64,000 nt of DNA from an uncultured Eubacteriales bacterium (GCA_964440805.1 CAYTTR010000004.1:15040-79039), one strand, 5' to 3'. Shown: positions 24,194 to 56,110, counted from the first letter of the stretch. Made by a program: numbers and translations. The notes: generated from the sequence alone by a model not told the origin.

Positions 24194-24215
24194 TAATCCT
24201 CGTTTGAATCAGCCT

Positions 24216-34556: not shown

Positions 34557-34566
34557 TTTTTCCCCC

Positions 34567-39154: not shown

Positions 39155-39158
39155 TATT

Positions 39159-39881: not shown

Positions 39882-41342
39882 TTATTTCTTTAGCCTTTCG
39901 ATTAGCTCTCCGTGATGGTTGTAAATATTGATAACCAAAGGCATATCACCAGGAAGAGCATGAGTCCCGCAGGCATGACAGGGATCATAAGGCCGGAAAG
40001 CCATTTCTGCCAGGTTTAGTAAACCTTCGGAGACTTTACCGCCTTTAATAAAAGCTTTGGCAGCTTTTTCAACCGACATGGTGATAGCTGCTGCATTGTT
40101 TACGGTGGCCACGATTAAGTTGGCTTCGGTCAGGATGCCTTTGGAATCTGTTTTGTAGTGGTGGATGAGAGTTCCACGGGGTGCTTCCACAATTCCTACT
40201 CCTTCATCGGGTGTTTCTGTAGGGATGTTTCTAATATTGGGATCGGTTATATCCTTGTTTTCCAGTAATTGTACCATTGCTTCTGTAGCTTGAAGGGCCT
40301 CGATTAAGCGGGCCCAGTGAAAAGCCAAGGTATGGTGAGACGGTTTTCCTCCCAGGACTTCATACATTTTCTCGTAGGCCTCCTGGGCCAGAGGAGTAGC
40401 CATTCCGTCGGAAGCATTCAACCGGGCAAGGGGGGCCACCCGGTAGATGCCGCTGTCTTTACCTTCGCTGAATCCATTCCAACCCACTTTTTTCAAGAAG
40501 GGGAACTTAATGTAGGTCCAGGGCTCTACATGTTCTGAAATATGATCAAGGTATTCGCTGGGGGAAAACTTGGCGTATTCTTTTCCTGTTGGATCGACTA
40601 CCCGGACCGGTCCGTCGTAAAAGTTTACTTTGTTATTTTCATCAACCAGGCCCATGTAATAGGTTTCCATCTTGTAGGCGTCCCCTGTGACCAGGTCGAC
40701 ATACTCTTTGTTCTTGAGCACTACATCATCGAAAATCTGCAAAGCAAACTGAGCAAATTCAACAGCGAATTTGGCTGTTTCCAGGAACTTGAGGCGGTGT
40801 TCTTCATCCAGGCCCTTGGATACTCCTCCAGGGAGGCCGGAAACCGGATGAATGACTTTTCCGCATAAATGATTAAGAATATCCCGGCATTCTCTCCTGA
40901 CCCGGATGACTTTTCCTCCGATCTCCAGCCCCACTTTACCCAGCACGCCAAGAATATTTCGTTCGGCTGCAGGTGCCTGAGGCCCGACCACAAAGTCCGG
41001 TCCTCCGAGAAAAAAGAAATGGAGCGTATGGTCCTCCATCATGAAAGTATTGTAGATAAGTTCGCGAAGCATTTTGGCGGCGGGAGTAGGTTGAACATGA
41101 AACAGGTCGTCCAGGGTTTTGGTTGAAGCCATGTGGTGGGCAGTGGGGCAAACACCGCATATCCGCGGGGTAATGCGGGGCATTTCCTCAGCCGGACGGC
41201 CTACTGCGAACTGTTCGAATCCGCGAAGTTCCGGTATTTGAAGAAAAGCTCTTTCTACATCTCCTTTGTCATCCAGAAAGATTTCAATTTTTCCATGTCC
41301 TTCCAGACGGGTGATAGGGTCTATAGTTATGCGTTGGCTCAT
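39882..41342 (-). CDS. mvhA: group-3c [NiFe]-hydrogenase large subunit (MvhA-type)
   Basis: 486 aa with RICGVCPTAHH near the N-terminus and DPCHACGTH followed by a 25-aa cleavable extension. Confidence 0.9.
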   Translation of the reverse strand: MSQRITIDPITRLEGHGKIEIFLDDKGDVERAFLQIPELRGFEQFAVGRPAEEMPRITPRICGVCPTAHHMASTKTLDDLFHVQPTPAAKMLRELIYNTFMMEDHTLHFFFLGGPDFVVGPQAPAAERNILGVLGKVGLEIGGKVIRVRRECRDILNHLCGKVIHPVSGLPGGVSKGLDEEHRLKFLETAKFAVEFAQFALQIFDDVVLKNKEYVDLVTGDAYKMETYYMGLVDENNKVNFYDGPVRVVDPTGKEYAKFSPSEYLDHISEHVEPWTYIKFPFLKKVGWNGFSEGKDSGIYRVAPLARLNASDGMATPLAQEAYEKMYEVLGGKPSHHTLAFHWARLIEALQATEAMVQLLENKDITDPNIRNIPTETPDEGVGIVEAPRGTLIHHYKTDSKGILTEANLIVATVNNAAAITMSVEKAAKAFIKGGKVSEGLLNLAEMAFRPYDPCHACGTHALPGDMPLVINIYNHHGELIERLKK

Positions 41343-42319
41343 TTTGATTCCTCCATTTTGCGCCTTCTTAAGATGGATTTAGGCAGGCTGAAGCGGTAAA
41401 AAGTGCCGGCTGGATCTACAATGGTTTGAACCACTTTTTCAATTTCTTTTTCGTCGTCTGTGTCCAGAATTGAGGCAAAGGCAGCCAGGAATTTAGCTCC
41501 CTGGTCGAAGACCTGGTCGGTTGGTCCAAAGCAGCCCCGGCAGGGCATGTTGGCTTCAATGCAGCGCTCCCCGCATCCAGTCCGTGTAGCCGGGCCAAGA
41601 CAAACAACTCCCTGGGCGAGAAAACATTTCTCCGGGTCGAGCATAATTTCCCAGGGGCGTTTTATCTCTTTGACAGCCATTTTTTCCGGTTTTGATTCGT
41701 TGCGGTCGCAGTCGTCACAAAGTGATTTGTTGGGGGAGAGAACTGCACCCTTGGGAGGCAGCTTTCCTTCGAGAATAGCTTGAACCGCCTCCATGATTAA
41801 GTTTTTCGGGGGGGCACATCCCGGAAGATAATAATCCACGTCAATAACCTGGTCAAGGGCATAAACGGTATCATAAAAGCTGGGCAGATAAAGCTCTTTT
41901 CCATCAACGGTGCATTTTTCCTGAGGGACTACACCGTCAGGGTTGTCCGTAGAAGGAGTGGTATGATAAGATCGGTTAAAAATTGTTTCTTTGTCCCAAA
42001 AATTGGCCAGGCCAGGAACCCCTCCGAGATGGGCACAGGAGCCGAAGGCTACCACCAGTTGGGATTTCTTCCGGAGAAGATCAACCATTTCTTGTTGTTC
42101 AGACAGGCGGACGGCTCCGTTAATGAAGCTCACAGCAATAGAGCCATCGTCCATGGCCTCTACGTCTTTTTTCTTGAAGTCGAGAGCCACCGGCCAGAAG
42201 ACAATGTCCACTGCTTCAACCACTTTCAGAATGTCTTCGGCAAGGTCGACCACAGCCTCCTCGCATCCGCCGCAGGAGGCACACCAGTAAAAAGCAACTT
42301 TAGGTTTGTCATTACTCAT
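41339..42319 (-). CDS. mvhG: group-3c [NiFe]-hydrogenase small subunit (MvhG-type)
   Basis: 326 aa with N-terminal [28 protein letters not shown] and distal cluster cysteines. It overlaps mvhA by 4 nt. Confidence 0.85.
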
Positions 42320-42743
42320 TATGATTTCCTCCGTTCCAGGACAGGGGTCCTAATTTACGTATTTCTTCTGTGAATTCATTGCATACTTTCTGGAACTTTG
42401 CTCCTTCCGCCGCTGAAACCCATTCCAGGCGGAAGCGTTCTTTTTCGATTCCGAACTGTTCCAACATTTTAGAGAGTAATCTGTGCCTTCTTAAAGCTTT
42501 GTAGTTTCCCTCTTGGTAATGACAATCGCCGGGGTGACACCCAGAAATAAGGACACCGTCTGCGCCTTCTCTGAAAGCTTTGAGGACAAATTGAGGGTCT
42601 ACTCTACCGCTGCACATGACCCTGATAATCCGCATGTTGGGAGCATAGGTCATGCGGGCAGTGCCGGCGAGATCAGCGCCCGTATAAGAGCACCAATTGC
42701 ATAAAAAGCCAACCAATTTAGGGTCGAAGGCTTGCTCGCTCAT
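42312..42743 (-). CDS. mvhD: methyl-viologen-reducing hydrogenase delta subunit (MvhD/FlpD)
   Basis: 143 aa with [24 protein letters not shown] and [21 protein letters not shown]. Confidence 0.85.
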
Positions 42744-42832: not shown

Positions 42833-44590
42833 TTATTCAATAAACAGGCCCTCGATCTCAGCAAAGATCTGGGCATCCCGGAAATGTTTCTGTTGCGAAG
42901 CAGCGCTGGGGCAGGCAGAAACACAGGTGCCGCATCCTTTGCAGAGGGCATCATTGATTTCAGAAATCCCCTTCTCTTTATTGAAGGTGATGGCGGTAAA
43001 AGGGCAAAGTCCCACGCAGAGCTGGCAGCCGGAGCAAAGTTCTTCATCTATTTCGGCTGTAATGGGTTCCAGCTCAAAGACACCCTTATCAGCTAAGGCC
43101 AAGGCTTCGGAAGCAGCTGCTCCTGCTTGAGCCACTGTATCAGGGATATCTTTGGGAGACTGGCAGGTTCCGGCCAGGAAAATTCCGTCGGAAAATGTTG
43201 AAACCGGAGCCAGTTTAGGATGGCGCTCGAGAAAGAAAGTGTCTTGACTGCAGGATATATTGAAAATGTGAGCCAATTCATTTTGCTCAATTCCCGGCTC
43301 AAGACCAGTGGCCAGTATAACCATGTCTACTGGAATCCGGCGGACCGCTCCTAACAAAGTATCTTCTACCCCGATTACAAGTTTTCCCTCTTCGCTTTCT
43401 GTCAGGGGGATATCGCTTATTTCTGATACTCTGCCCCGAATAAACTTGGTTCCTTCCTCGAGCAATCGATGATAGAACTCTTCGTACCCTTTTCCGAAAC
43501 AGCGCATATCGATGTAGAAGTCATATATATCAGCTTCTGTTTTTTCCTTGAGCAGATGGGCGAATTTAAGCGAGTACATGCAGCAGACCCTTGAGCAGTA
43601 TTCGTTGTAGTTTTCATCCCGCGAGCCAACGCAGTGAATAATGCCCACTGCTTTAGGTTCTTCTCCATTGGCCAAAAGAATGTTACCGCCGGTTGGACCT
43701 GAGGCATTAACCAGCTTCTCGAATTCTATGGCAGTTATGACATTAGGAAAGCGCCCGTAGCCGTAGGCCGGTATTTTCCGGGGATCAAAAGGTTTAAAGC
43801 CGGAGGCAAGGATAATGGATCCCACTTCAATCTCTTTTTCTTTCTCCTCCATTTCGTGGTTGATAGCCTCTTTTTCGCAGACTTTTTCACAGAGTTTGCA
43901 GTTTCCGGTTTTAAAATGAATGCAGGCTTCTTCGTCGATAAAGGGAACCATGGGAACAGCTTGTCTTATTGGAACCCGGACGGCGGTAAGGGGTCCTAAT
44001 AGGAGTTCTTCATGAATTACTTTGCGTCCGTGAAGATCTTCGACCGTAATGGCTTCAGTGGGACAAAAATAAGCGCAGGCGGCACAACCGATGCAAGCTT
44101 CTGATTCTTTACCGAAAGGAGGAGCTACTTCTCTATCTTTTCCCCGGTTGATGAAGCTAATAGCATTGGCTCCCACAACATCTTCACAGGTACGGACACA
44201 CAGCCCGCAGAGAATACATTTCTCATGGGGATCCTTGATTTCAAAACGGGTCTTTTCAATTCCCAGGTCCTCGGCAATTTTCTGAACAGGTTCAGCTGCC
44301 GGGGCTCGGGCCATCAGCATTTCTACATTTAGTTTTCTGGCTCTCAGGGCTCTTTCTGAGGAGGTCTCAACCATCATTCCGTCGCGGGCTTGGGTGTTGC
44401 ATGATGTAACCAGATCTTTTTCTCCATGAACATCGATTTCCACCACGCAAACCCGGCAGGCGGCATAAGGCTCAAGCAGCGGGTGATAGCAGAGAGTGGG
44501 GATGTGAACATCCGCCTTTTCCGCTGCTTGAAGAATAGTTGTTCCTTCCTCAACCTGAATTTTTTTTCCGTCTATGGTGATGTCGATCAT
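42833..44590 (-). CDS. chimeric Fe-S flavoprotein: NuoG/HydA-type N-terminus (2Fe-2S + 2x4Fe-4S) fused to the C-terminal two-thirds of HdrA
   Basis: Residues 1-185 contain [18 protein letters not shown]...LCYHP...CRVCVVEI...TSC and [12 protein letters not shown]...[12 protein letters not shown]. From ~205 onward the sequence is HdrA-like: [72 protein letters not shown], and a C-terminal ferredoxin [12 protein letters not shown]...[12 protein letters not shown]. Confidence 0.75.
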   Translation of the reverse strand: [585 protein letters not shown]

Positions 44591-44602: not shown

Positions 44603-46435
44603 TTACTCAATTTTTACGGCTCCGAAATTGCAGACGTCAAAACAGACGCCACATTTAATACACTTATCCTGAACGATACGATGAAGCTGATTTTTTTCTC
44701 CTATAATAGCATCGGAAGCGCAGTTGCGGCGGCAGAGGTCGCAGCCGTGTCCGACTTCAACACAGATTTTTTCATCGATAGTGTAGGTGTTAAGCTCGCG
44801 GCAGACATGAGCCGGACATTTTTTATTGGTTATATGAGCTTCATATTCTTCCCTGAAATATCTCAAAGTGGTCAAAACTGGATTAGGAGCAGTTTTTCCC
44901 AGCCCGCAGAGGGCTGTATCTTTAATGGAAACAGCCAGGTCTTCCAGGAGATTCAGGTCTTCCATTGTCCCTTCACCCTTTGTAATCCGGTCCAGGATTT
45001 CCAGCATGGCTTTTGTCCCTTCCCGGCAGGGAGTACATTTGCCGCAGCTTTCATCCTGGGTGAAGGATAGGAAGTATTTGGCTATATCCACCATGCAGGT
45101 GTCCTCGTCCATGACCACCATTCCTCCTGAGCCCATCATGGAACCTGCGTCTGTCAGGCTTTCGTAGTCTATGGTGAGATCAATTTGTTCCTTGGGTATG
45201 CAACCTCCTGAGGGGCCTCCGGTCTGAACGGCTTTGAATTCTTTTCCTTGAGGAATACCCCCTCCGATTTCGTATATAATTTCTCTGAGGGTAATGCCCA
45301 TGGGGACTTCAACCAGGCCGGTGTTGTTGATTTTTCCTACTATGGAAAAGACTTTTGTTCCTTTGCTGGTTTTGGTGCCGATGTGGGAATACCAGTCAGC
45401 TCCCCGGTTGATAATGGGGGAAACATTGGCCCAGGTTTCCACATTGTTGATGCAGGTGGGCTGTCCGTAGAGTCCTTTCTGAGCAGGATAGGGGGGCCTG
45501 GGTCTGGGTTCACCTAATCTTCCTTCGATTGAGGCGAGAAGGGCTGTTTCCTCTCCGCAAACAAAGGCTCCAGCGCCGCGGGCTACTTTGATATCGAAAT
45601 CGAAGCCTGTTCCCAGAATATCCTCACCAAGAAGACCGTATTCCCTTGCTTGTTTGAGGGCTATATTTAGTCTTTTTAAAGCCAAAGGATATTCATTGCG
45701 GACATAAACATAACCCACACCGACTCCTATGGCCTTGGCTCCGATGACCATTCCCTCAATGACAGAATGTGGATCTGCCTCCAGAATGCTTCGGTCCATA
45801 AAGGCTCCCGGGTCACCTTCGTCACCGTTACAGACAATATACTTCATGCCTCCGTTAGAGGTTGAGGCAGCCCGGACGAATTCCCATTTAAGGCCGGTAG
45901 GAAAACCAGCTCCTCCCCGGCCGCGAAGACCGGATTTTTTTACCTCAGCGATGATTTCTTCCGGAGTCATTTTGGTTAAAGCCTTAACCACAGCCTGATA
46001 ACCGTCCCGGGCGATATATTCATCGATTTTTTCCGGATCAATGAGCCCCCGGTTACGTAAGGCAATAAGGACTTGTTTTTTGAAAAAATCAATTTCATTC
46101 AATACCGGAACCGCTTTTTCTTCCTCCGGCGGTCTGTACATTAGTTTTTGAACGGGGCGTCCTTTTAGAAAATGTTCCTCAACTAAGTGGGGAATGTCTT
46201 TTAAAGTAAGTTGCTGGTAAAAGATGTTTCCCGGCTGGACCACAAGCAAGGGGCCACGTTCACAAAAGCCGTTGCAGCCTGTGGTTACAACCAGAACTTC
46301 ATCTTCCAAGCCTTGTTCTTTGATTTCTTTTTCCAGGGTTTCCTTGATTTCAAACGAGCGGTTGGAAACGCAAGCTGTTCCGGCGCAAACCATTAAATGA
46401 ATCCGGTATCTTTTCTCTGTTGCTTTTTCGGGCAT
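44603..46435 (-). CDS. NuoF-like NAD(H)-binding flavoprotein subunit (HydB/HndC type)
   Basis: 610 aa. It has an N-terminal thioredoxin-like 2Fe-2S domain (VCAGTACVS...GCNGFCERGP), GRGGAGFPTGLKW, CGKCTPCREG and two C-terminal CxxCxxCxxxC motifs. Confidence 0.9.
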   Translation of the reverse strand: MPEKATEKRYRIHLMVCAGTACVSNRSFEIKETLEKEIKEQGLEDEVLVVTTGCNGFCERGPLLVVQPGNIFYQQLTLKDIPHLVEEHFLKGRPVQKLMYRPPEEEKAVPVLNEIDFFKKQVLIALRNRGLIDPEKIDEYIARDGYQAVVKALTKMTPEEIIAEVKKSGLRGRGGAGFPTGLKWEFVRAASTSNGGMKYIVCNGDEGDPGAFMDRSILEADPHSVIEGMVIGAKAIGVGVGYVYVRNEYPLALKRLNIALKQAREYGLLGEDILGTGFDFDIKVARGAGAFVCGEETALLASIEGRLGEPRPRPPYPAQKGLYGQPTCINNVETWANVSPIINRGADWYSHIGTKTSKGTKVFSIVGKINNTGLVEVPMGITLREIIYEIGGGIPQGKEFKAVQTGGPSGGCIPKEQIDLTIDYESLTDAGSMMGSGGMVVMDEDTCMVDIAKYFLSFTQDESCGKCTPCREGTKAMLEILDRITKGEGTMEDLNLLEDLAVSIKDTALCGLGKTAPNPVLTTLRYFREEYEAHITNKKCPAHVCRELNTYTIDEKICVEVGHGCDLCRRNCASDAIIGEKNQLHRIVQDKCIKCGVCFDVCNFGAVKIE

Positions 46436-46448
46436 ATCTCCCCTCCTC

Positions 46449-46838
46449 TCAATAATCGGTCTTTTCGCTGCCTATTCCCAGGGCATAGTCCTTGACCACA
46501 TTTCCACCGGTAATGTGTTTCTCAAAAATTTCCTTAACCTTTTTTTCGTCAAGGTCAACATATTTTACTGGAGGCTTTCCTTTGAGTTCCACTGTGGCCA
46601 TTGGTTCCCGGCTGCAGAGTCCGGCACAACCAGAAGTGGTGAGTAGGATATCAGTGATATCCTTTTCTTCGAGTTCCTTCATGAAAGTATTCATGATACT
46701 TCTGGCTCCGGCTGCTATGCCACAGGTTCCCATATGAACCGTGATTTTAGCCTTGTATTCTCCACCTTCTCGCAGTCCAGTTTGTTTTCGGGTTTTTTCC
46801 CGGATTTTTTCTAAATCTTCAAGGGTAAGTTTAGGCAT
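46449..46838 (-). CDS. thioredoxin-like (2Fe-2S) ferredoxin (HndB-like)
   Basis: ATG 46838 follows GAGGGGG. The motifs are HMGTCGIAAGA and TSGCAGLCSREP. Confidence 0.8.
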   Translation of the reverse strand: MPKLTLEDLEKIREKTRKQTGLREGGEYKAKITVHMGTCGIAAGARSIMNTFMKELEEKDITDILLTTSGCAGLCSREPMATVELKGKPPVKYVDLDEKKVKEIFEKHITGGNVVKDYALGIGSEKTDY

Positions 46839-46849
46839 TTTTCCCCCTC

Positions 46850-47302
46850 TCATTTTTGATATTTTTTAATGACACCCGGGACTTTCATCTGGGGAATCTT
46901 TCCATGAACTTCTTCTCCCACCATAACCACTGGCGCCAGTCCGCAGCATCCCACACAACGAACTGCGTCCAGGCTGAACTTTAAATCCTCAGTTGTTTCC
47001 CCGGTCTTAATCCCCAGTTCCCGTTCAAATTTTTCCAGAACCAATTGAGCCCCTCTGACATGGCAGGCCGTTCCCATGCAGACATGAATTGGGTTCTTCC
47101 CTCTGGGCACTAAGCTGAAAGCGTTGAAAAAAGTAGCCAGACTCAGTACCCGGCTTAAGGGGACATTGAGCTCCTTGGAGACTTGAACGAGTGTTTCTTT
47201 GGGGAGGTAACCATAATGTTCCTGGATGTCTTGGAGGATGGCAATTATTGAACTCTGTTGAGGTTCATAACGTTCGATTATTTCAGTGACTTTTTCCTCC
47301 AT
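46850..47302 (-). CDS. NuoE-like 2Fe-2S subunit (HydC/HndA type)
   Basis: 150 aa with HVCMGTACHVRGA and VRCVGCCGLAPV. Confidence 0.9.
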   Translation of the reverse strand: MEEKVTEIIERYEPQQSSIIAILQDIQEHYGYLPKETLVQVSKELNVPLSRVLSLATFFNAFSLVPRGKNPIHVCMGTACHVRGAQLVLEKFERELGIKTGETTEDLKFSLDAVRCVGCCGLAPVVMVGEEVHGKIPQMKVPGVIKKYQK

Positions 47303-47306
47303 GTTT

Positions 47307-47849
47307 TTACCTCCTTATTAGATCGGTTCCTTCTTTTAAGTTGTTTATGATAAATGACATGACTCCTGGAGAGTTCAAAGGTTGTCCATTAAATCTGGTC
47401 CTGATATCCTTGGTGGAAAAGGTGAACTCCTGGCCGTCTTTTTGGTGGATATAAACAATATCCACTTCCGGATGACCCATTATCAGGGTAGCCAATGTTT
47501 GAGGGATATCTCCAAGAGGTTTCATGTCCCAGTGATCTGTTTTAAAGGTGGCCCTGACTTTTGTCCCCCGGCCGGGAGAGGATTCAATTGAGAAATGTCC
47601 CCCTGCAGCCCGGGCCGCTTCAGCCAGCAGAGAAAGCCCCAGTCCAACTTTCCGGGTAGTCCGGGAAGTAAAGAAAGGATCCACAGCTTTTTTTAAAGTT
47701 TCTTTATCCATCCCTTGTCCGTTGTCTTCTATACTTAGGATAAGTAGATTGCCGGCAATATTTTCTTCCAGACGGATTATTATTCTGGAAGCCTGAGCAG
47801 AAATAGAATTCTCGGCAATGTCAAGCAGATGCAATGACAAGTCTTCCAT
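47307..47849 (-). CDS. histidine-kinase-like ATPase (HATPase_c only)
   Basis: 180 aa with LLDIAENSISA (N-box-like), IEDNGQGMD (G1) and VGLGLSLL (G2). There is no HisKA or H-box. Confidence 0.75.
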   Translation of the reverse strand: MEDLSLHLLDIAENSISAQASRIIIRLEENIAGNLLILSIEDNGQGMDKETLKKAVDPFFTSRTTRKVGLGLSLLAEAARAAGGHFSIESSPGRGTKVRATFKTDHWDMKPLGDIPQTLATLIMGHPEVDIVYIHQKDGQEFTFSTKDIRTRFNGQPLNSPGVMSFIINNLKEGTDLIRR

Positions 47850-47856
47850 TTTTCCT

Positions 47857-48585
47857 TTAATTTAAAAGCCTTCTTCCGTTTTTATTTAATAAAGCTAATT
47901 TAATTTCTTCTATAGAAACTTTTTCCAGTTGAAAAAAAGTAAATCTCCGGCCGATTTCCTCCGGGCGGTGAGCATCTGATGAAGCTGTCATGGGTAATGA
48001 AGGAGAAAACTTTCTCCGGGCATCTTTAATAGAGATAAGAGGCGAGGTTTCCAGAGCGTCCAGGGCAAGCTCAGGAGGGATGAATCCCAGTTGGCTGAAG
48101 ATGCTGAAAGCCCCCCGGTCGATATGGGAGGCCATTGCCAGTCCACCTAAAGAATGGATGGCATCGACCGTCTCATTGATGGTAAGAGCGCAGGCACCAA
48201 TGAGGAGACGAGGATTGAAATTCAGAACTTCGCCTTTTTCATTGACTACTGCCTGGAGCCCGAAAGCTTTTTCATCGTTTTCACCGGGAAGATGGGCGTA
48301 AATCATTTCCTGGAGTCCGAAGGCCTGGCGGGCATTATCGAAAAGTCCCAAAAGATGAATTTCTTCCTGGGTGGTCACTTCAATCCCGGGAAAGATGAAA
48401 ATCTTATTGCTTTTGGCGGCGTCGGTAACGGCAGGAACATTCTCGGCTGAATTGTGGTCACAAATGCCCAGGATATCTAACTCTTCTTTAAGGGCTCTTT
48501 CCACAATAGCCCGGGGGGACATGCTCAATTCAGCGCAAGGAGAAAGGCAGGTATGAATGTGGAGATCAGCTTTGAAACTCTTCAC
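47857..48585 (-). CDS. PHP-domain phosphoesterase
   Basis: 242 aa with ADLHIHTCLSPCA, ICDHNS, ASHID and SSDAH, the metal-binding His/Asp series of PHP domains. Confidence 0.8.
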   Translation of the reverse strand: MKSFKADLHIHTCLSPCAELSMSPRAIVERALKEELDILGICDHNSAENVPAVTDAAKSNKIFIFPGIEVTTQEEIHLLGLFDNARQAFGLQEMIYAHLPGENDEKAFGLQAVVNEKGEVLNFNPRLLIGACALTINETVDAIHSLGGLAMASHIDRGAFSIFSQLGFIPPELALDALETSPLISIKDARRKFSPSLPMTASSDAHRPEEIGRRFTFFQLEKVSIEEIKLALLNKNGRRLLN

Positions 48586-48931
48586 GCTTTTTTTCTCCTT
48601 CTTTAAGCAATTGATAAAGTTTGCCTGAGGCGGTAAAGGCCGTTTCCTGGCTAAGGAGAAGAGGCACTCCTTCTTCTCCGGCTTTTTTTACGGCTGCATC
48701 CTCAGGCATCCGTCCGTTGACCAGGATAATTCCGCTCAATTCCTTCAATACCGCCACAGCCACAATATTCTGATGGATTTGAAGAGTTATCCACAGATTT
48801 TTCGCTTTGCTGTTGGCCATGACGTCGCTAAGAAGATCTGAGGTATAACCGCTGGAGACCTCGATGTCCAGCCGGTCTTCAGCGGTCAGGGCCTCAAGAC
48901 CCAGTTGTTTTATAATGGTTTTTAACTTCAT
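48566..48931 (-). CDS. DRTGG domain protein
   Basis: 121 aa, a paralogue of 50734-51102 (SDLLSDVMANSKAKNLWITLQ / SDLMSDVLAFGKPGLLLLTGL; GRMPEDAAVKKAGEEGVPLL / GKKPDKEAVELAERKNISLL). Confidence 0.7.
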   Translation of the reverse strand: MKLKTIIKQLGLEALTAEDRLDIEVSSGYTSDLLSDVMANSKAKNLWITLQIHQNIVAVAVLKELSGIILVNGRMPEDAAVKKAGEEGVPLLLSQETAFTASGKLYQLLKEGEKKREEFQS

Positions 48932-50301
48932 TTTTTTCCGGCCTTTCTTTTTTTCTTAGAGCCTTGATTCCTGGGAGAATAAGCCTTCTGGGTTTTTTCA
49001 AGCATTTTAATTAGTTCTGTGGAAAGCTTCTTGAAATGTTGAGGGACCATGGCAAAACAATCTGTTAGTTCCGCCTCTCCCCTGACTAAATCCTCGGCAA
49101 AAATAGGACAACTGGGAGAACCGCAGGCTCCGCAATCAATTTTAGGAAGCTTTTTATAGATTTCATCTTTTTCTTTCTTTTTTTGAATGGCTAAGGAGAG
49201 ATCATCATAAAGAGGCTTCAACGGCCGGGGCTTGAGCTCTCCTTCTATAAAAAAGCTTCCTTCCCGGTAGCGTTTGCGGATGCTGACGATATCCGGACAG
49301 GCCTTGACTTTTTCCAGTTCAAGAGTTTCCAGAAGCTGAACTATTTTGTTATAGGAGATATAAAGATTTTCTACGGTTAATGAACCGCCCACGCATCCCT
49401 GGGGACAGGAATAAGCTTCAATGAAGTCGATATGACTTAGTTTGCCTCGCTCGATATCTTCAAAAACCTTAGTGATTTCTGCAATACCCGATACTGCCAG
49501 TGAATTCTTCAGTTTGAGGGTGCGACGGATACCTCCGGCAATAGCCCAGCCCAAACCCAGAATGCATATTTTTTCCAGAGAATCTCCCTCATCTTTCTTG
49601 TCCATGTTTTCTATAGCAGAAAGCAGAGGGCCGTAAATATCAGAAACAGCAATAGCTCCATCAAGATGGGATTTGCCTTTTTCAGCAGGCTGTTTAATGG
49701 ATATCATTTTAACTGGGCAAGGTGTAATGTAAAAAGCCCCGATTTCTTTTTCTTTAAGTCCGAGCTGACTTGATTTCTTTTTCTTTATTTCTCTTCCTGC
49801 AAGTTCTCTGGGAATATCAATGGGAGTGACATGCTGGACAAGAGAAGGATATTTTACTTGAATCAATCTGACTACAGTAGGGCAGACATTGGAAATGATT
49901 GGACGGGGACCTTTATTTTCTCTTAAATATTCCTGCATAGCTAAGCTTACCTCACCGCAGGTAAAAGCCAAGTCATAGGCATCGTCGAATCCAAGGCGGC
50001 GCAGTCCGCGGAGGATTTTACCTGGTAGAATCTCCTGGCCAAACTGGGCATAAAGAGCCGGTGAAGGGACAGCCACTGTGTAACGGAACCTGGTTAGTTC
50101 TCCTACCGGATCAGTTAAAGGAACAATTGCATTTGAGGGACAGGCGGTGATACATTCGCCGCAGTCGATGCACTTATCTTCCAGAATATGGGCTTTTCCT
50201 CCTCTGACCCGTATGGCCTGGGTAGGGCAAGCTCTCATGCAGCTCATCCGGCCTCGACACTTTTCTGTATCAATGCGAATAGTGTGGAAATATTCAGTCA
50301 T
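48928..50301 (-). CDS. [FeFe]-hydrogenase-like protein (2x4Fe-4S + H-cluster-domain-like core + C-terminal CxxCxxxxC Fe-S motif), putative sensor
   Basis: 457 aa with CMRACPTQAI...CIDCGECITACP. Its counterparts of the H-cluster motifs are degenerate: SNVCP (versus TSCCP), TPCPVK (versus MPCxxK) and SCPQGCVGG (versus CxxGCxxGG). The C-terminal motif is CGACGSPSCP...C. It lacks a NuoG-like N-terminus. Confidence 0.7.
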   Translation of the reverse strand: MTEYFHTIRIDTEKCRGRMSCMRACPTQAIRVRGGKAHILEDKCIDCGECITACPSNAIVPLTDPVGELTRFRYTVAVPSPALYAQFGQEILPGKILRGLRRLGFDDAYDLAFTCGEVSLAMQEYLRENKGPRPIISNVCPTVVRLIQVKYPSLVQHVTPIDIPRELAGREIKKKKSSQLGLKEKEIGAFYITPCPVKMISIKQPAEKGKSHLDGAIAVSDIYGPLLSAIENMDKKDEGDSLEKICILGLGWAIAGGIRRTLKLKNSLAVSGIAEITKVFEDIERGKLSHIDFIEAYSCPQGCVGGSLTVENLYISYNKIVQLLETLELEKVKACPDIVSIRKRYREGSFFIEGELKPRPLKPLYDDLSLAIQKKKEKDEIYKKLPKIDCGACGSPSCPIFAEDLVRGEAELTDCFAMVPQHFKKLSTELIKMLEKTQKAYSPRNQGSKKKRKAGKK

Positions 50302-50737
50302 GGTTCTTTTCCAGAAAAAAAATCATCCTGAGGAATGTTCCTTCTCCGGGAATAGAGGTTATGGTAAAAAGATCGGCATTTTTCTTTATATTAGGAAGAC
50401 CCATGCCGGCACCGAAGCCCATCTCTCTCATTTCCTCGGTGGCGGTGGAGTAACCTTCCTGCATGGCCAATTCAATATTTTCTATGCCCTGCCCTTGATC
50501 ATCGACCTCGATCTTGATTGCTCTGGGATTGAGCACCAGAGATAATTCTCCTTCTTGGGCATACATAACAACGTTCATTTCTGCCTCATAGGAGGCGATA
50601 GCCACCCTGCGTATGATTTCAGGAGCGATCCCGATTTCCCTGAGAATTTCTTTGACTTCTGTGGAAACATTTCCTGCCCGGTTGAAGTCTCCTCCCTTAA
50701 TGGAAAAAGATTGGAATAATTCATCCTTCCTTGTCAT
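50294..50737 (-). CDS. anti-sigma-factor-type Ser/Thr kinase-like ATPase (HATPase_c only)
   Basis: 147 aa with ASYEAEMNVVMY, DDQGQGIEN and GFGAGMGLPNI. Confidence 0.7.
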   Translation of the reverse strand: MTRKDELFQSFSIKGGDFNRAGNVSTEVKEILREIGIAPEIIRRVAIASYEAEMNVVMYAQEGELSLVLNPRAIKIEVDDQGQGIENIELAMQEGYSTATEEMREMGFGAGMGLPNIKKNADLFTITSIPGEGTFLRMIFFLEKNHD

Positions 50738-51102
50738 CCTGTTTTTTTTTCAGCCGTAGAAAATACTCCCGGAATCCCGGATTTATATAAAATACCGCAG
50801 GCTTCGTACATCATAAAATTAGTGCAGAGAAGAGAAATGTTTTTTCTCTCGGCTAATTCCACTGCTTCTTTATCAGGTTTTTTGCCGCGGACATAAACGA
50901 TGGCCTTGGCTTCGATGATATCGGCGGTGCGCACCGATTGCTGGTTGGACAATCCGGTGAGAAGAAGAAGGCCCGGTTTCCCAAAAGCCAGGACATCGCT
51001 CATCAGATCAGAACCGCCGGCAAAAGAGATTTCCTGATCGAGAAGGCTGTCTCCGGAAATGACTTCAGCCTTGAGAAGTTCTTTTATTTTTCTGAGATTC
51101 AT
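50734..51102 (-). CDS. DRTGG domain protein
   Basis: 122 aa, a paralogue of 48566-48931, with a 4-nt overlap with the downstream gene. Confidence 0.7.
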   Translation of the reverse strand: MNLRKIKELLKAEVISGDSLLDQEISFAGGSDLMSDVLAFGKPGLLLLTGLSNQQSVRTADIIEAKAIVYVRGKKPDKEAVELAERKNISLLCTNFMMYEACGILYKSGIPGVFSTAEKKTG

Positions 51103-51107
51103 TACTT

Positions 51108-51959
51108 TTAATGTTCTTTTTGAACTTTTTTAAAAATTGTCTTTCCTTTCCTGATAATTCTTTCCGATGGACTGACAATAGTGGGGCAGTTTTCCCAGCA
51201 AGCGCCGCAGCCGTTGCATGTGTCCACATCGACAAAGCGGGCTTTTTTCTTGATTCTGGCCTTGAAATTTCCCACATGACCGGAAATTTCTTCCACTTCG
51301 CTCCAGGTTAAAAGCTGGATATTGGGATGTTTGCCCACTTCGGTCATTTTAGGAGTAAGAATGCAGGCGGAGCAGTCCAGGGTGGGGAAAGTTTTATCCA
51401 GCATGGACATGTGGCCGCCGATGGAAGGCTCTTTTTCTACCAAGTAAACTTTTTTTCCTGAATTAGCATAAGTAAGGGCAGCATGAATGCCGGCAATGCC
51501 GCCTCCGACAATCAGAATTTCCGGTCTTACCGGAACTTCTTTTTTCATTAACGGATCATGGAGAGCCACCCGGCGCACTGCGGCTGAAATCAAGGCTTTG
51601 GCTTTCTTGGTGGCTTTGTCGGGATCCTTGGTAACCCAGGAAACATGTTCCCGGATATTGGACATTTGAAAGAAAAAGGGATTAAGTCCTCCCTCAGCCG
51701 TTGCCCCACGGAAAGTAGGTTCGTGCATTAAAGGTGAACAGGAGGCCACTACTACCCGGTTCAGGTTATGATCTCTAATATTTTGTTTTATAAGTTCCTG
51801 GCCAGGATCCGAGCACATGAATTTATGCTCCTTGGCTACAATCACGTTATCCAACTTGGAGGCGAATTCGGCCGCTTCATAGACATTAACTTTTCCGGCA
51901 ATATTGGTGCCGCAGTGGCAGACAAAAACTCCGATTCTTGGTTGGCCGTTTTCTTGCAT
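51108..51959 (-). CDS. hdrA: HdrA N-terminal fragment (N-terminal Cys domain + first part of the FAD domain + first ferredoxin-insert motif)
   Basis: 283 aa with IGVFVCHCGTNIAG...VVVASCSP...NIREHVSWV, the FAD site ILIVGGGIAGIHAA, LVEKEPSIGGHM, DKTFPTLDCSACILTPKM and CNGCGACWENCP. It stops 24 codons after that last motif. Confidence 0.8.
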   Translation of the reverse strand: MQENGQPRIGVFVCHCGTNIAGKVNVYEAAEFASKLDNVIVAKEHKFMCSDPGQELIKQNIRDHNLNRVVVASCSPLMHEPTFRGATAEGGLNPFFFQMSNIREHVSWVTKDPDKATKKAKALISAAVRRVALHDPLMKKEVPVRPEILIVGGGIAGIHAALTYANSGKKVYLVEKEPSIGGHMSMLDKTFPTLDCSACILTPKMTEVGKHPNIQLLTWSEVEEISGHVGNFKARIKKKARFVDVDTCNGCGACWENCPTIVSPSERIIRKGKTIFKKVQKEH

Positions 51960-51960
51960 G

Positions 51961-52845
51961 TTATCCTCCTATCTGGATTCTTGACCACATATTATTCAGG
52001 GGAATTATGGAGCGGTTAAAGCCCAACTCTTCCCTCGGAAGGCCGAAAGCTAATCCCATGAGCTGGGAAAAATAGAGAATGGGGAGCTTAAAATCTTCTT
52101 TAAAAGCCTTGGCCACCTTGCTCTGGATTATCTCCAAGTTGAACTGGCACAGCGGACAAATGGTCACAATAACATCAGCCTTTTTCCGGCGAGCTTCTTT
52201 GAGCAGGACATAGTTGAGCTGAGTGCCCACTTCCTCAATGGTTCCTGTTAAAGAGCCTCCGCAGCATTTGGTCTTGGCTGCATAATCAACAGGAGAAGCT
52301 CCCAGGGTTTCCATAAGTGAATCAAGGCTTGTTGGATAATCAGGATCATCGAAATCAGTGTATGGCCTGACAAGCTGGCATCCGTAATAGCAGGCAATTC
52401 GGAGTCCAACCAAAGGGTTTTGAACTTTTGTCTGGATAGTTTTAAAGCCGACTTCATTCACCAGCACATCGAGAGGGTGTTTTACTTCCACTCCACCCTT
52501 ATACTCACAACTTGAGTTTTTAAGGTCATCAAGGATTTTTTTTGCTTGGTTGCTTCCTTCTTTGAGAAAATGGTTGGATTTTTTTAAGGTCAGAAAGCAG
52601 CCGGCACAGGGAGCCAGAATATCCTTGCCTGTTTTTTCAGCAATGGATAAATTCCGGCCGCAGATGGCAGCAGCCATTTTGTCGTCAACAGAGAAGTAAG
52701 CGGTTGCCCCGCAGCAATTCCAATCCTCCATCTCCTCCGTTTCCAGTCCCAGTGTTTTTAATACCGGAAGCAGAGACTCTTCATAATGCTTGGCGTTTCC
52801 CTGCATGGAACATCCGGGATAATAAACATAATCTTTCATCTTCAT
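51961..52845 (-). CDS. hdrB: heterodisulfide reductase subunit B (two CCG domains)
   Basis: 294 aa with YYPGCS...WNCCGA...APCAGC and YYGCQ...KCCGGS...CPLCQ. Confidence 0.9.
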   Translation of the reverse strand: MKMKDYVYYPGCSMQGNAKHYEESLLPVLKTLGLETEEMEDWNCCGATAYFSVDDKMAAAICGRNLSIAEKTGKDILAPCAGCFLTLKKSNHFLKEGSNQAKKILDDLKNSSCEYKGGVEVKHPLDVLVNEVGFKTIQTKVQNPLVGLRIACYYGCQLVRPYTDFDDPDYPTSLDSLMETLGASPVDYAAKTKCCGGSLTGTIEEVGTQLNYVLLKEARRKKADVIVTICPLCQFNLEIIQSKVAKAFKEDFKLPILYFSQLMGLAFGLPREELGFNRSIIPLNNMWSRIQIGG

Positions 52846-53417
52846 TCCTCCTTGGCTGCCTTTAATATCCGGCGAAGCTGTCTGGTATTTTTAATTTTTT
52901 CTTTTTTTAAGCTCATTCGTCCGGTCTTCATCAGGCTCATACCCATTGGGGCCATTTTGAGAAGCCCCATTGGATTTTTGGATTTAAGGTATAGATTGAG
53001 GACAAGCCAGGTTTCAGAGTTGCGGCCGTTTTTGGCAATCAGGCGGTGCATTTCCCGGGCCAGAACGGGCATGGAAAACTTGGAGGGATAAACTCCTTCT
53101 TCTATAGCTTTTCTTTTCAGAGCGTACATGACATCGGTTATTTTGATTTTAGAAGGGCAGCGGACCTGACAGGTGTAACATGACGGGCAGAGCCAGATGG
53201 TAAAACTTTTTAAGGCTTCTTCTTTAAATCCGTTTTTTATGAATGAGATGATTTTACGAGGGGGATAATCCATATAAATAGCCATTGGACAGGAACTGCT
53301 GCAAGTGCCGCATTGAATACAGCGGTCTATTTCCTCGCAGTGGGACATCTCCTTGATTTCGTCAAGGAAATTTCTGTCCAGTTCCTCTTCAAACTTAACT
53401 TTTCTCTGGATTTCCAT
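52842..53417 (-). CDS. hdrC: heterodisulfide reductase subunit C
   Basis: 191 aa with CIQCGTCSSSCP and CPSCYTCQVRCP. It overlaps hdrB by 4 nt. Confidence 0.85.
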   Translation of the reverse strand: MEIQRKVKFEEELDRNFLDEIKEMSHCEEIDRCIQCGTCSSSCPMAIYMDYPPRKIISFIKNGFKEEALKSFTIWLCPSCYTCQVRCPSKIKITDVMYALKRKAIEEGVYPSKFSMPVLAREMHRLIAKNGRNSETWLVLNLYLKSKNPMGLLKMAPMGMSLMKTGRMSLKKEKIKNTRQLRRILKAAKEE

Positions 53418-53634: not shown

Positions 53635-53663
53635 ATAATATTTTTTATAACAGGCCTTGTCAA
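53635..53663 (-). promoter_or_regulatory. candidate sigma-70 promoter for the hdr-nuoEF-mvh operon
   Basis: The minus strand reads TTGACA-N17-TATTAT, ~220 nt upstream of hdrC. It lies in AT-rich DNA, so a chance match is possible. Confidence 0.3.
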
Positions 53664-53861: not shown

Positions 53862-54383
53862 TTATCTCTTGTGGAAGAATCCGCGGTCTTTCATTCTGAT
53901 TCCACGGTGGTGACCCATATAGCCATGACCGCAACCGGCAGCACAGGCTCCCATACAGCTTCTGCTACCCATGAAATGGCCGGGAGTCATTTTGTCGAAG
54001 ATTTTCTTCTGGTCTTCGGTCAGAACATTTCTGATTTCCTGACGGTGGGCATAGGCTTTTTTCTGCATTTCAGCTCGTGCTTTGGCGATTTCATCTATCA
54101 TGGCGTTTATTTTGGCGGAATCAGCCTTGTCCATGGTCAGAGCTCGAAGGTCAAGCATTTTGGCCTTGAGTTCTGTCTGCATAGTCAGCCTTTCTTTTTG
54201 AAATACGAGCTTCATTTTCTGAATTTTTTCCATCTGTTCCGTGGTCAGATTTAACTGCGTCTTACACATCATTTCCTGACCCTTAATCGGTTTTTCTTCC
54301 TGAGCTTTTTGGGCAGACAGCGGAACCATAGCTGCCAAAGCAATGATTAGAGCCCCTACCGTAATTCGATTTAGTTTTTTCAT
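53862..54383 (-). CDS. periplasmic Spy/CpxP-family (LTXXQ) protein with a Cys/His/Met-rich tail
   Basis: It has a signal peptide, LTXXQ motifs (LNLTTEQMEKI, VLTEDQKKIF) and the tail CMGACAAGCGHGYMGHHRG. Confidence 0.7.
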   Translation of the reverse strand: MKKLNRITVGALIIALAAMVPLSAQKAQEEKPIKGQEMMCKTQLNLTTEQMEKIQKMKLVFQKERLTMQTELKAKMLDLRALTMDKADSAKINAMIDEIAKARAEMQKKAYAHRQEIRNVLTEDQKKIFDKMTPGHFMGSRSCMGACAAGCGHGYMGHHRGIRMKDRGFFHKR

Positions 54384-54416
54384 TTTTTACCTCCTATTTT
54401 ACCTCCTATTAAATTT

Positions 54417-54971
54417 TTAATGGTATACCATGGTTTTCATGATCGATTTATTTCTATTCTTTTCTATTTTTCTGCCCTCTGCGGGCGGTTTTTCGGATGG
54501 ATGGTGATCTTTTATGGTCCGGCCGCAGACATGGCGTTCGAACATTGAGAAATAGTGTTTCCTTTGTCTCTGGTCCAGGATAGATTTCTCCTGGAGAAGA
54601 TTCATAACCGCTTTTTTCTGGATTTCCGCCTGGAGAAGGCTTATCTCATCGATCAATTTGTTGATTCTGGTCATATCCGGCTTTTCGCTCCGGATTTCTT
54701 CAATAAGAACTCTTTTTTTCTCCTGGATTTCCTGGATTTCAGGTCTTATTTGCTGCCTGTAGGAAAGTCTCCGGACTCTTAATTTTTGGATTTGTCCCGG
54801 CGTCAGGCCGAGTTCTTTTCTGACTGATTCAACGGTTTCGCCTGGATCAGGTGGAGCAAAGGGTTTTTCCTGGGAAAACAGCCGGTTGTAACTTAGGGTA
54901 AAAAGAGCAGTCAAATTGACGGCGATAAGAAAAACTAAGATATATGTCAAATGTTTATTCTTTTTTTTCAT
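54417..54971 (-). CDS. membrane-anchored LTXXQ-motif periplasmic protein
   Basis: It has an N-terminal TM anchor, LGLTPGQIQKL and a coiled-coil-like remainder. It overlaps the anti-sigma gene by 4 nt. Confidence 0.6.
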   Translation of the reverse strand: MKKKNKHLTYILVFLIAVNLTALFTLSYNRLFSQEKPFAPPDPGETVESVRKELGLTPGQIQKLRVRRLSYRQQIRPEIQEIQEKKRVLIEEIRSEKPDMTRINKLIDEISLLQAEIQKKAVMNLLQEKSILDQRQRKHYFSMFERHVCGRTIKDHHPSEKPPAEGRKIEKNRNKSIMKTMVYH

Positions 54972-55462
54972 GACCGGCCCTCCTCAGCTACATTATTAGT
55001 GTTTAGATAAAGATAAGCATCAGCCAATGAATCTGAAGGAATCTCTTCGAACTTGTTGAAGTATTCAGATACAAACTCAGAAGTCTTATCTTGGCTGATT
55101 TTGGATGGAGAGTAGGCAAGTTGGATTCCAGTAATAATGCCCAGGAGGATGAGTGCTGTGACTGGAACTGCCCGAAGCAAGGGTTTCAACCCGGTTAGAA
55201 TTTTTTTTGGAGCAGCTTCTTGATGTTCATATTCTTCGATTTTGTTTATAAGCCTGCTTAAAAAATAAGGAGAAGGTTCTATTTCTGTCGGTGATTCAAT
55301 CCTGTTCCATAATAGAGAGAAATCCTTTATCAGCCGGGAACATTGAGGACAGGAGTCCAAGTGAGCCCGGAGTATCTCTTCGGGAAGTGATGGGATTTTC
55401 TTTTTTTCCGCGATGTCCACCAGGTGAGCTTTCACCAAGCGGCAGGTTTTGTTTTTTTTCAT
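54968..55462 (-). CDS. anti-sigma factor (zf-HC2 type), single-pass membrane protein
   Basis: An N-terminal H/C pattern (CRLVKAH...HLDSCPQC) and a central TM (AVPVTALILLGIITGIQLA) are present, and it lies directly downstream of the ECF sigma gene. Confidence 0.7.
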   Translation of the reverse strand: MKKNKTCRLVKAHLVDIAEKKKIPSLPEEILRAHLDSCPQCSRLIKDFSLLWNRIESPTEIEPSPYFLSRLINKIEEYEHQEAAPKKILTGLKPLLRAVPVTALILLGIITGIQLAYSPSKISQDKTSEFVSEYFNKFEEIPSDSLADAYLYLNTNNVAEEGRS

Positions 55463-55516
55463 TTTTCCAACCTTTACATTTAATTAGACACAGGTTTTTC
55501 CAAAAAACTTGCGTCG

Positions 55517-56110
55517 CTATTTATTTTTTTCCATAACCTCAAGGAGAATATCGCGAAGGGCATTTTTTGCCCGGTGAATTCTCGACTCAACCGAGGATAG
55601 TGACGTATTTAAAATTTCGGCAATCTCCCGGTAAGAAAGGCCTTCCCAGTAATGAAGAATGAAAGCCGTCCTTTGTTTTTCCTGGAGAGAGTCGAGAGCT
55701 TTATTTATAAATTTTCTTTCTTCTTTTTTCTCAAATGCTTCCTCCGGCGATTGATTGGGAAATGACTGTAAGATGTCAACATGCCTGGTTCTGCTTTCCT
55801 GTTCATCAACAGATGATTTATTCTGGGAAAATCTTTTTTGCTTTCTATTGAAGTTCAGCGAGCGGTTGACGGCAATCCGGTAGAGCCAGGTGGACAGTTT
55901 ACTCCGGCCGCGAAAGCTTTTTGCCTGCCGGTAGACTTGGAAAAAAACTTCCTGAGCCACATCTTCTGCATTTTCCCTGTCTCCGGTAAGGCGAAAGCAA
56001 GTGTTGAGGATAAGGCTCTGATAGCGGTTAACCAGTTCCTGGAATGCCAGCAGGTCCTTTTGGGCAATTTTCTGCATGAGTTTAAAATCATTTCCCAAAG
56101 ACTGTTTCAT
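55517..56110 (-). CDS. ECF-type RNA polymerase sigma-70 family factor
   Basis: Region 2 is AEDVAQEVFFQVY and STWLYRIAVNRS. Region 4 is LSYREIAEILNTSLSSVESRIHRAKNAL. Confidence 0.9.
   Translation of the reverse strand: MKQSLGNDFKLMQKIAQKDLLAFQELVNRYQSLILNTCFRLTGDRENAEDVAQEVFFQVYRQAKSFRGRSKLSTWLYRIAVNRSLNFNRKQKRFSQNKSSVDEQESRTRHVDILQSFPNQSPEEAFEKKEERKFINKALDSLQEKQRTAFILHYWEGLSYREIAEILNTSLSSVESRIHRAKNALRDILLEVMEKNK

Follow-up and report, generated by a model that had tools for sequence, protein, structure and literature searches.

What might a protein resembling [FeFe] hydrogenases be doing among the genes of a [NiFe] enzyme? The question is raised by a stretch of 64,000 nucleotides (nt) from an uncultured Eubacteriales bacterium (GCA_964440805.1 CAYTTR010000004.1:15040-79039), which we call the window. 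On its minus strand, at 51102-47307, a first-pass annotation had recognized a cassette of six tightly packed genes for a 457-amino-acid (aa) protein similar to [FeFe] hydrogenases, two DRTGG proteins, two kinase-like ATPases and a PHP phosphoesterase, and all six were found there with these domains. As that annotation also reported, the cassette lies between genes of a [NiFe]/Hdr system, with hdrC, hdrB and the N-terminal half of hdrA on one side and nuoE, fdx, nuoF, the C-terminal part of hdrA and mvhDGA on the other. According to our analysis, the cassette probably represents an H2/redox sensor module that controls the bifurcating Bfu core of the neighbouring enzyme after translation, a reading to which we assign a probability of roughly 55%. 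The 457-aa protein bears the features of the group D “[FeFe] hydrogenases,” which are widespread; their role and partners are an open question, the identification of partners having been called critical (PMC13104023, 2026), and the same source agrees with the earlier statement that the signalling mechanism is unresolved. In the literature, we found no description of DRTGG or PHP proteins with hydrogenases, of this type of operon, of an association with the Bfu core or of the gene fusions reported below.

The 457-aa HydS-like protein (48928-50301) is composed of an N-terminal ferredoxin-like two-cluster domain, an H-domain and a C-terminal Cx2Cx4Cx16C cluster, with Pfam matches to Fe_hyd_lg_C (6e-28), FeS (1e-12) and a Fer4 dicluster and none to PAS. 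Group D (M2e) is defined by the N-terminal two-cluster domain, the H-domain and a C-terminal Cx2Cx4Cx16C motif without PAS, together with the loss of the proton-relay Cys299 and the replacement of Met353 by Ser/Thr (Land 2020, PMC8163306). Here, position 299 is Val139, position 353 is Thr193 and position 497 is Tyr, the family pattern being A/F/V at residue 139 and T/S at residue 193. The three H-cluster motifs (S137-N-V-C140-P, T193-P-C195-P-V-K198 and S298-C299-P-Q-G-C303-V-G-G306) are present as first quoted, but the view that they are degenerate was wrong, because they correspond to the signature published for group D, and their conservation extends through the family. The H-cluster cysteines C140, C195, C299 and C303 (C300, C355, C499 and C503 in CpI numbering) are invariant in 81/81 homologues, so the loss of essential ligands, which together with an absence of hydEFG had been named as an argument for a non-hydrogenase Fe-S protein, was not seen. 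The additional C-terminal motif (C390-G-A-C393-G-S-P-S-C398-P) is real and runs on to C415, forming exactly Cx2Cx4Cx16C, and its cysteines are likewise invariant among the 81 homologues. A Thermoanaerobacteraceae orthologue (locus L048 of our set) shows, at the corresponding positions, the Ala, Ser and Leu published for TamHydS; the 457-aa protein aligns with this TamHydS-like sequence over its full length at 37–39% identity and falls into one family tree with it, whereas it shares only ~25% identity with group A HydA over part of the H-domain. The tree covers sensors of this family only. On architecture and key residues, the predicted placement of the 457-aa protein in group D (M2e), as a HydS-type putative sensory [FeFe] hydrogenase, appears sound.

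Some features of the protein are peculiar to its closer relatives. The second ferredoxin motif is complete (C44, C47, C50 and C54). Residue 18, which is Arg in the present protein, is His or Ser in some relatives, and those relatives that have no Cys at this residue all possess a clade-specific Cys335, whereas most of those with it do not (the protein of L013 has both). This pattern may indicate a ligand swap or a 3Fe cluster. Separately, Cys115 and Cys246 are invariant within the Aminicenantes clade.

The DRTGG proteins, DRTGG_a (122 aa, 50734-51102; Pfam DRTGG 2e-4, sub-threshold) and DRTGG_b (121 aa, 48566-48931), score 21.6 and 21.2 bits, just under the Pfam cut-off of 25.2. Their assignment is secured because they are paralogues of each other, as had been claimed (34% identity, E 4e-15 in BLASTP), because a profile of 49 DRTGG orthologues matches the DRTGG domain of the CBS-pyrophosphatase structures 3L2B/3L31 and of AF_1212 (2IOJ), and because fused DRTGG homologues exceed the cut-off. 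Over 55 orthologues, DRTGG_a conserves D32, S35, D36, T49-G-L, R58-T59 and R72-G-K-x-P76, and both paralogues have invariant Asp32 and Ser35 within a D-L-x-S-D-V motif, plus Thr49. The first ATPase, HATPase_a (147 aa, 50294-50737; Pfam HATPase_c_2 2e-9), is a stand-alone GHKL ATPase of the SpoIIAB/RsbW (serine-kinase anti-sigma) type: its family profile matches the SpoIIAB structures 1TIL/1L0O/1TH8 over the whole length (E ~6e-11) and RsbW 6M36 at 0.02, and it hits NCBIfam spoIIAB at 1.5e-12, below the family cut-off, while single-sequence PDB searches with HATPase_a and with DRTGG_a returned only noise. The second, HATPase_b (180 aa, 47307-47849; Pfam HATPase_c 4e-18), is a histidine-kinase-type catalytic (CA) domain with a conserved C-terminal extension. 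Both ATPases have intact N, G1 and G2 boxes, and the claim that they lack an H-box was borne out, since Pfam and NCBIfam detected the catalytic domain only, with no HisKA, DHp or H-box domain in either. The PHP protein (242 aa, 47857-48585; Pfam PHP 8e-8, PHP_C 2e-7) is a predicted metal-dependent phosphoesterase of the PHP family, with the metal-ligand residues H9, H11, D43-H44, E69, H77, H154 and D204-x-H206 invariant in 59 orthologues.

By its sequence, the operon around the cassette encodes a composite enzyme, which comprises HdrC, HdrB and a split HdrA, a HydBC-type Bfu core and an MvhDGA group 3c [NiFe] hydrogenase. HdrC (52842-53417; Pfam 4Fe-4S dicluster) and HdrB (51961-52845; two CCG domains in Pfam) are followed by a 283-aa open reading frame (ORF; 51108-51959) that holds the N-terminal 40% of HdrA and corresponds to residues 3–263 of M. 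thermolithotrophicus HdrA (5ODC_A, E 9e-100) and to positions 1–258 of NCBIfam HdrA2. On the far side of the cassette stand a BfuC/HydC/NuoE-like [2Fe-2S] subunit (150 aa, 46850-47302; Pfam 2Fe-2S_thioredx 5e-49), a HydD-like small thioredoxin-like [2Fe-2S] ferredoxin (134 aa, 46449-46853; Pfam and NCBIfam) and a BfuB/HydB/NuoF-like flavin mononucleotide (FMN)-NADH subunit (610 aa, 44603-46435), in which Pfam recognizes an N-terminal [2Fe-2S] domain and two C-terminal [4Fe-4S] clusters and which matches, over its full length, subunit B of the bifurcating NiFe-HydABCSL of A. mobile, an enzyme of solved structure (7T2R_B, E 1e-261). Next comes a chimeric BfuA-N::HdrA-C protein (585 aa, 42833-44590): its residues 1–194 are the N-terminal FeS wire of BfuA/HydA (PDB 9MQX_A, 8A6T_A and 7T2R_A), and residues ~198–583 are the C-terminal two-thirds of HdrA (8RVU_a 276–652; 5ODC_A 244–650; NCBIfam HdrA2 265–639). 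The series ends with MvhD (42312-42743; Pfam FlpD 3e-58), an MvhG-like small subunit (41339-42319; Pfam Oxidored_q6) and the group 3c [NiFe] large subunit MvhA (39882-41342; Pfam NiFeSe_Hases, NCBIfam VhuA 6e-127). MvhA, MvhG, MvhD, HdrA, HdrB and HdrC are thus all encoded, HdrA only as two pieces.

The break in HdrA falls inside its inserted ferredoxin domain, with nine genes between the halves, and the split is kept in all related operons (N-terminal piece of 280–296 aa, fusion protein of 583–594 aa). Most simply, the arrangement can be read as the insertion of a hydC-hydD-hydB-hydA(N) block, along with the cassette, into hdrA of an hdrCBA-mvhDGA operon. Such an insertion would wire the ferredoxin-side branch of HdrA directly into the Bfu core, and the predicted substrates of the enzyme are H2, NAD+, ferredoxin and a disulfide. 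The cassette had been described as an orphan. This holds insofar as no HydA was found in the operon or elsewhere in the 64 kb, but BfuC and BfuB, the homologues of HydC and HydB, follow it immediately.

The distribution of the cassette indicates which part of this enzyme it belongs to. We fetched 80 loci with relatives, one genome per species; a 12-sequence alignment was used for the locus scan, as a 48-sequence alignment was too diverse. Neighbouring genes were annotated with the proteins of the window as queries, with a sample checked by Pfam; the flanks were readable to 10 kb, and 41 loci with at least 8 kb on each side formed the full-flank set. At least 20 Firmicutes-type loci show the order DRTGG-ATPase-HydS-DRTGG-PHP-NuoE-ATPase-Fdx-NuoF-HydA, with the identity of HydA confirmed by Fe_hyd_lg_C (1e-105) and the small-subunit domain. 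That such cassettes accompany bifurcating [FeFe] hydrogenases in Firmicutes was therefore rightly stated, and the arrangement is known from Thermoanaerobacter (PMC3608648). The layout of the window (hdrC, hdrB, hdrA N-half, cassette, nuoE, fdx, nuoF, bfuA::hdrA C-half, mvhDGA) recurs in at least 10 other genomes (L003, L008, L009, L010, L011, L012, L015, L024, L027 and L047), labelled Terriglobia, Solibacteraceae, Bryobacterales, Vicinamibacterales, Ignavibacteria and some Clostridiales/Eubacteriales bins; a locus with a Bacteroidetes label (L013) has the hdr-cassette part of the layout before the contig ends. In other genomes, the cassette precedes NuoEF with a molybdopterin (formate dehydrogenase (Fdh)-like) BfuA (L017, L019, L023, L026 and L070), with an Nfn/GltD-like BfuA (L020) or with a NiFe-Bfu enzyme (L033), and in one case (L001, GCA_012974965.1) it directly follows a HoxYH-type [NiFe] hydrogenase and its protease, with no NuoEF. 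Aminicenantes genomes can hold additional copies of the cassette (L001, L033 and L062), one of them a distant copy, with 41% identity, beside NiFe-Bfu.

A neighbour-joining tree of the sensors places those of the Hdr/NiFe context in a clade of their own, next to the Fdh context and apart from the Firmicutes [FeFe] sensors. With this clade and with the repeated layout in several lineages, the suggestion that the sensor had been co-opted in a one-off event finds no support. Since the tree splits by type of partner, the sensor has diversified in parallel with the type of Bfu enzyme at its side. In the full-flank set, a DRTGG protein and ATPase_a lie beside the sensor in 39/41 loci, and NuoF occurs within 10 kb of the cassette in 28/41. 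Because Fdh-like, Nfn-like and NiFe-type Bfu enzymes are found with the cassette as well, its constant genomic partner is the BfuBC (HydBC-type) core, not the [FeFe] HydA. We can state with considerable confidence that it is a group D cassette tied to Bfu enzymes.

The components of the cassette also occur as fused proteins. Six loci encode a DRTGG_a::ATPase_a fusion and three (L024, L027 and L047) a PHP::ATPase_b fusion. More distant homologues carry DRTGG at the N-terminus of HydS (P0125 and P0194) or at its C-terminus (P0147, P0161 and P0165), where group C sensors have PAS, while P0154 joins a SpoIIAB-type ATPase (HATPase_c_2) to HydS. These fusions indicate that the proteins would form one multiprotein module. 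Reduced cassettes exist beside Fdh-like Bfu (L016, L017, L022 and L023), which comprise DRTGG_b, DRTGG_a::ATPase_a and HydS but neither PHP nor ATPase_b; the core thus seems to be made up of these three, with PHP and ATPase_b as an add-on. Another protein recovered by the search, P0175 (4122 aa), has seven tandem units of HydA large and small subunits, then flavodoxin and FAD-binding domains; it is unrelated to the cassette and may be a eukaryote-type or misassembled polyprotein.

The fusions also bear on the idea that the HydS-like protein is an extra subunit, that is, an additional H2 site of the [FeFe] type, or an FeS relay, docked on Hdr-Bfu-Mvh as in archaeal hybrid hydrogenases. Its gene is translationally coupled within the operon, and its N-terminal ferredoxin domain is of a kind typical for the entry of electrons. 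TamHydS interconverts H2 and H+ reversibly (PMC8163306), and hybrid FeFe-NiFe complexes are known in archaea (PMC11216029). However, the 10 fused homologues examined join HydS to DRTGG or to a SpoIIAB-like ATPase and never to Bfu or hydrogenase subunits. Moreover, the proton pathway is missing, group D rates are low (PMC8163306), and FeFe-HydABC and NiFe-HydABCSL were purified without these proteins (PMC8880783). We regard an extra subunit as very unlikely.

Taken as a sensor module, the cassette might operate as follows. The HydS-like protein would bind an H-cluster, or at least its [4Fe-4S] part, and would report H2 pressure or the redox state. It would form a complex with DRTGG_a and the SpoIIAB-like ATPase_a, and with DRTGG_b replacing the PAS domain of group C. 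A change in the state of the sensor would then switch ATP-dependent binding or serine phosphorylation among ATPase_a and the DRTGG proteins, the best candidate site for phosphorylation being the invariant Ser35 of the D-L-x-S-D-V motif, and the PHP phosphoesterase together with ATPase_b could reset the switch. Because the C-terminal cluster of TamHydS shows no redox change under H2 (PMC13104023, 2026), a conformational relay to a docked DRTGG protein fits better than an electron relay. The output would be a post-translational gating of the bifurcating core, here tuning H2 oxidation or production by the [NiFe] enzyme; post-translational output is the most likely form because no DNA-binding domain was found among the six cassette proteins and because ATPase_b travels with bfuC/bfuB. 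A signalling role as such, rather than a catalytic or maturation role, appears likely to us; a specific phospho-switch acting on the enzyme is proposed only tentatively. The most far-reaching version, in which the HydS cassette would be a general post-translational regulator of BfuBC and would here control the [NiFe] hydrogenase within a double-bifurcating Hdr-Bfu-Mvh supercomplex that arose when a HydABC-type block and its regulators inserted into the ferredoxin domain of hdrA, is possible but rather doubtful.

The link of ATPase_b with the Bfu core can be given in numbers: it is present in 26/28 loci with NuoF vs. 2/13 without. The association with this core, whatever the catalytic partner, would suit an assembly or maturation function as well, the cassette then being an ATP-dependent machine for building or repairing BfuBC (with its FMN and unusual FeS clusters) from GHKL ATPases, a PHP phosphoesterase, nucleotide-binding-like DRTGG proteins and an FeS scaffold. 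Chaperones occur among GHKL ATPases, an output domain is absent, and “maturation and/or regulation” has been left open for HisK, HydD and HydP (Feng 2022, PMC8880783). However, ATPase_a is specifically SpoIIAB/RsbW-like and thereby belongs to a family of regulatory kinases, a scaffold would not need strictly conserved H-cluster residues, and in 11/13 stand-alone cassettes ATPase_b is missing and NuoF does not occur within 10 kb. Heterologous production has yielded active HydABC in the absence of the cassette genes. Assembly is, in our view, quite unlikely.

Several points weigh against a sensor module acting on the Bfu core. The H2 turnover of TamHydS is slow and its C-terminal cluster does not respond to H2 (PMC13104023), and we found no experiment demonstrating signalling by any group D protein. 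The cassette contains no output domain and only a candidate phospho-acceptor; in 13/41 full-flank loci, it occurs without NuoF nearby. In the clade of the 457-aa protein, the first ferredoxin motif (C15-x5-C21-x3-C25) has lost its second Cys, replaced by Arg18, and an AlphaFold2 model of the protein (43 close homologues) reached a mean predicted local distance difference test (pLDDT) score of only 57.7, too poor for use. No RNA-seq run containing the gene was found, and the operon is inferred from sequence. Lastly, neither the window nor the 10-kb flanks of any Hdr/NiFe-type locus yielded genes for HydEFG (HydE/G-type radical-SAM proteins or a HydF-type GTPase), and the [2Fe] subcluster may for this reason be absent from these organisms.

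If the maturases are absent, the 457-aa protein would be a redox sensor with FeS clusters only. In lineages without HydEFG, it would carry only the [4Fe-4S] cluster at the H-site, as eukaryotic Nar1/NARF-type proteins do, and would report the ferredoxin/NADH redox state, rather than H2, to the same ATPase/DRTGG/PHP switch. Within the window, tblastn and motif scans detected no homologue of HydA, HydE or HydG, in contrast to the Firmicutes cassettes L065 and L030, which have HydG/HydE beside them. A pure redox sensor would also agree with the presence of cassettes next to enzymes that do not act on H2 (Fdh-like and Nfn-like Bfu) and with the replacement of the proton-relay Cys by V, F or A. On the other hand, the residues that serve the [2Fe] subsite and not the cubane, namely Lys198 (K358), Pro194, Thr193 and the ExxxCxxGCxGG motif, are as strictly kept in the Hdr/NiFe context as in the [FeFe] context: K198 in 15/15 and 20/20 proteins, respectively (79/81 aligned overall), P194 in the same 15/15 and 20/20 (with one or two exceptions elsewhere), and T193 and E295 in 15/15 proteins of the Hdr/NiFe context. 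TamHydS, furthermore, binds [2Fe]adt (PMC8163306), and 20-kb neighbourhoods devoid of hydEFG reveal little about the genomes as a whole. We treat a redox sensor without the [2Fe] subcluster as improbable and retain the H2/redox sensor module as the preferred reading.

From 53417 to 39882 on the minus strand, 16 genes are tightly packed, with spacings from 89-nt gaps to overlaps of 4–20 nt; the start of DRTGG_b overlaps the stop of HydS by 4 nt. A candidate sigma-70-like promoter (TTGACA-17-TATTAT, 53635-53663, minus strand, 11/12 consensus match) is the best predicted in the region and the single good one there, ~220 nt 5′ of hdrC, and a strong terminator of the preceding operon lies at 53829-53805, just 5′ of it. 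The predicted promoter and both ends of the hydrogenase operon fall inside the window, and no catalytic HydA was found in this operon. Scans of the window against Rfam and for tRNAs gave no matches. The locus sequence occurs in microbial-mat metagenomes, and, judged by the names that its closest protein relatives bear, the organism belongs to the Acidobacteriota and is of Aminicenantes type.

Directly upstream, at 53862-56110 on the minus strand, are genes for an extracytoplasmic function (ECF) sigma factor, a zinc-finger anti-sigma-like protein and two Spy/CpxP-like periplasmic proteins. The sigma/anti-sigma operon (54968-56110) was considered as a target of the SpoIIAB-like ATPase and was rejected because the strong terminator and a separate promoter divide the operons and the pairing is absent in related loci. 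Another [NiFe] hydrogenase operon was found at 32035-36485 on the minus strand. It is of the group 3b sulfhydrogenase type (Shy/Hyd beta, gamma, delta and alpha); residues ~449–580 of its alpha subunit (581 aa) are a fused HycI-type maturation protease. Between both hydrogenase operons, at 36607-39695 (minus), a sigma-54-dependent two-component system comprises an AtoS-like kinase (442 aa) and an NtrC/AtoC-like regulator (412 aa), together with a 178-aa membrane protein without a family match; this system may control the transcription of one of the hydrogenase operons. Genes for hypA, hypB and a hydrogenase maturation endopeptidase were identified at 22703-24917 (minus), followed by a 233-aa histidine kinase core (HisKA and ATPase) without a sensor domain and by two small receiver-like ORFs.

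These results have implications beyond the present locus. The sensor cassette appears to belong to the NADH/ferredoxin bifurcating core and also serves [NiFe]/Hdr, formate-dehydrogenase-like and Nfn-like enzymes. The fusions point to the DRTGG proteins and the SpoIIAB-like ATPase as likely direct partners of the sensor, with PHP pairing with the second ATPase; since they name these partners, the question of signalling becomes testable with a handful of small proteins. In the literature on Aminicenantes and Ignavibacteria, “FeFe” or “Mvh/Hdr” hydrogenases are mentioned only generically, and surveys of metagenomes in which this gene is scored as an H2-producing [FeFe] hydrogenase, for example in these groups, may overstate fermentative H2 production. 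The split HdrA and its fusion with BfuA suggest a new wiring of two bifurcating modules to a [NiFe] hydrogenase in abundant bacteria of sediments and mats.

Compared with known regulatory systems, the cassette shows partial likeness to two. It shares with the SpoIIAB-SpoIIAA-SpoIIE and RsbW-RsbV-RsbU modules a full-length SpoIIAB-like GHKL ATPase (ATPase_a), an adjacent small protein with an invariant serine and a phosphoesterase, but the role of antagonist would fall to a DRTGG protein, which in some cases is fused to the ATPase, and neither in the cassette nor in the operon did Pfam detect a STAS, PP2C or sigma-factor domain. The partner-switching likeness proposed in the first-pass annotation is, for this reason, valid as an analogy and not as membership. 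With the group C sensors (HydS of T. maritima and R. albus, which go with a PAS domain, a Ser/Thr kinase and a PP2C phosphatase), the cassette has in common a sensor H-domain, a C-terminal [4Fe-4S] cluster and kinase and phosphatase functions near a bifurcating hydrogenase; in place of PAS, it has a separate or fused DRTGG protein, its phosphatase is PHP and not PP2C, and it is without Rex or another transcription factor.

The closest counterpart of the 457-aa protein is TamHydS of Thermoanaerobacter mathranii, which has the same domain order (two-cluster ferredoxin, H-domain and Cx2Cx4Cx16C, without PAS), the same class of substitutions (position 299 not Cys, position 353 Ser/Thr) and a gene neighbourhood upstream of a bifurcating HydABC. 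The two differ in sequence (~37–39% identity), in positions 299/497 (Val/Tyr here vs. Ala/Leu), in the Arg of the first ferredoxin motif and in the downstream enzyme, which here is without HydA and includes a split HdrA and the [NiFe] Mvh. In the Firmicutes cassettes, ATPase_b lies between hydC and hydD, whereas here it precedes bfuC.

As for the enzyme, all parts of the methanogen Mvh-Hdr (MvhAGD-HdrABC) are present, and the sole published parallel that we found for the combination of HdrA with Bfu is Bam-Bfu (PMC9304861), the class II benzoyl-CoA reductase (BamB-I) in which the HdrA bifurcating flavoprotein is joined by a BfuABC module. Unlike both, the present operon has a split HdrA, the C-terminal half of which is fused to the FeS wire of BfuA, and no tungsten or benzoyl-CoA module. 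In NiFe-HydABCSL of Acetomicrobium mobile, as would be the case here, a BfuABC core drives a [NiFe] hydrogenase, and the subunit B of this enzyme is the best PDB match of BfuB. The A. mobile operon encodes a kinase-like HisK and a small ferredoxin, HydD, both absent from the purified holoenzyme (PMC8880783); HisK is the counterpart of our HATPase_b, and a HydD-like ferredoxin is also present here. The accessory genes named for A. mobile are HisK, HydD and HydP only (PMC8880783), whereas the operon described here combines a group 3c Mvh with MvhD and HdrABC, a BfuA fused to HdrA and the full six-gene cassette.

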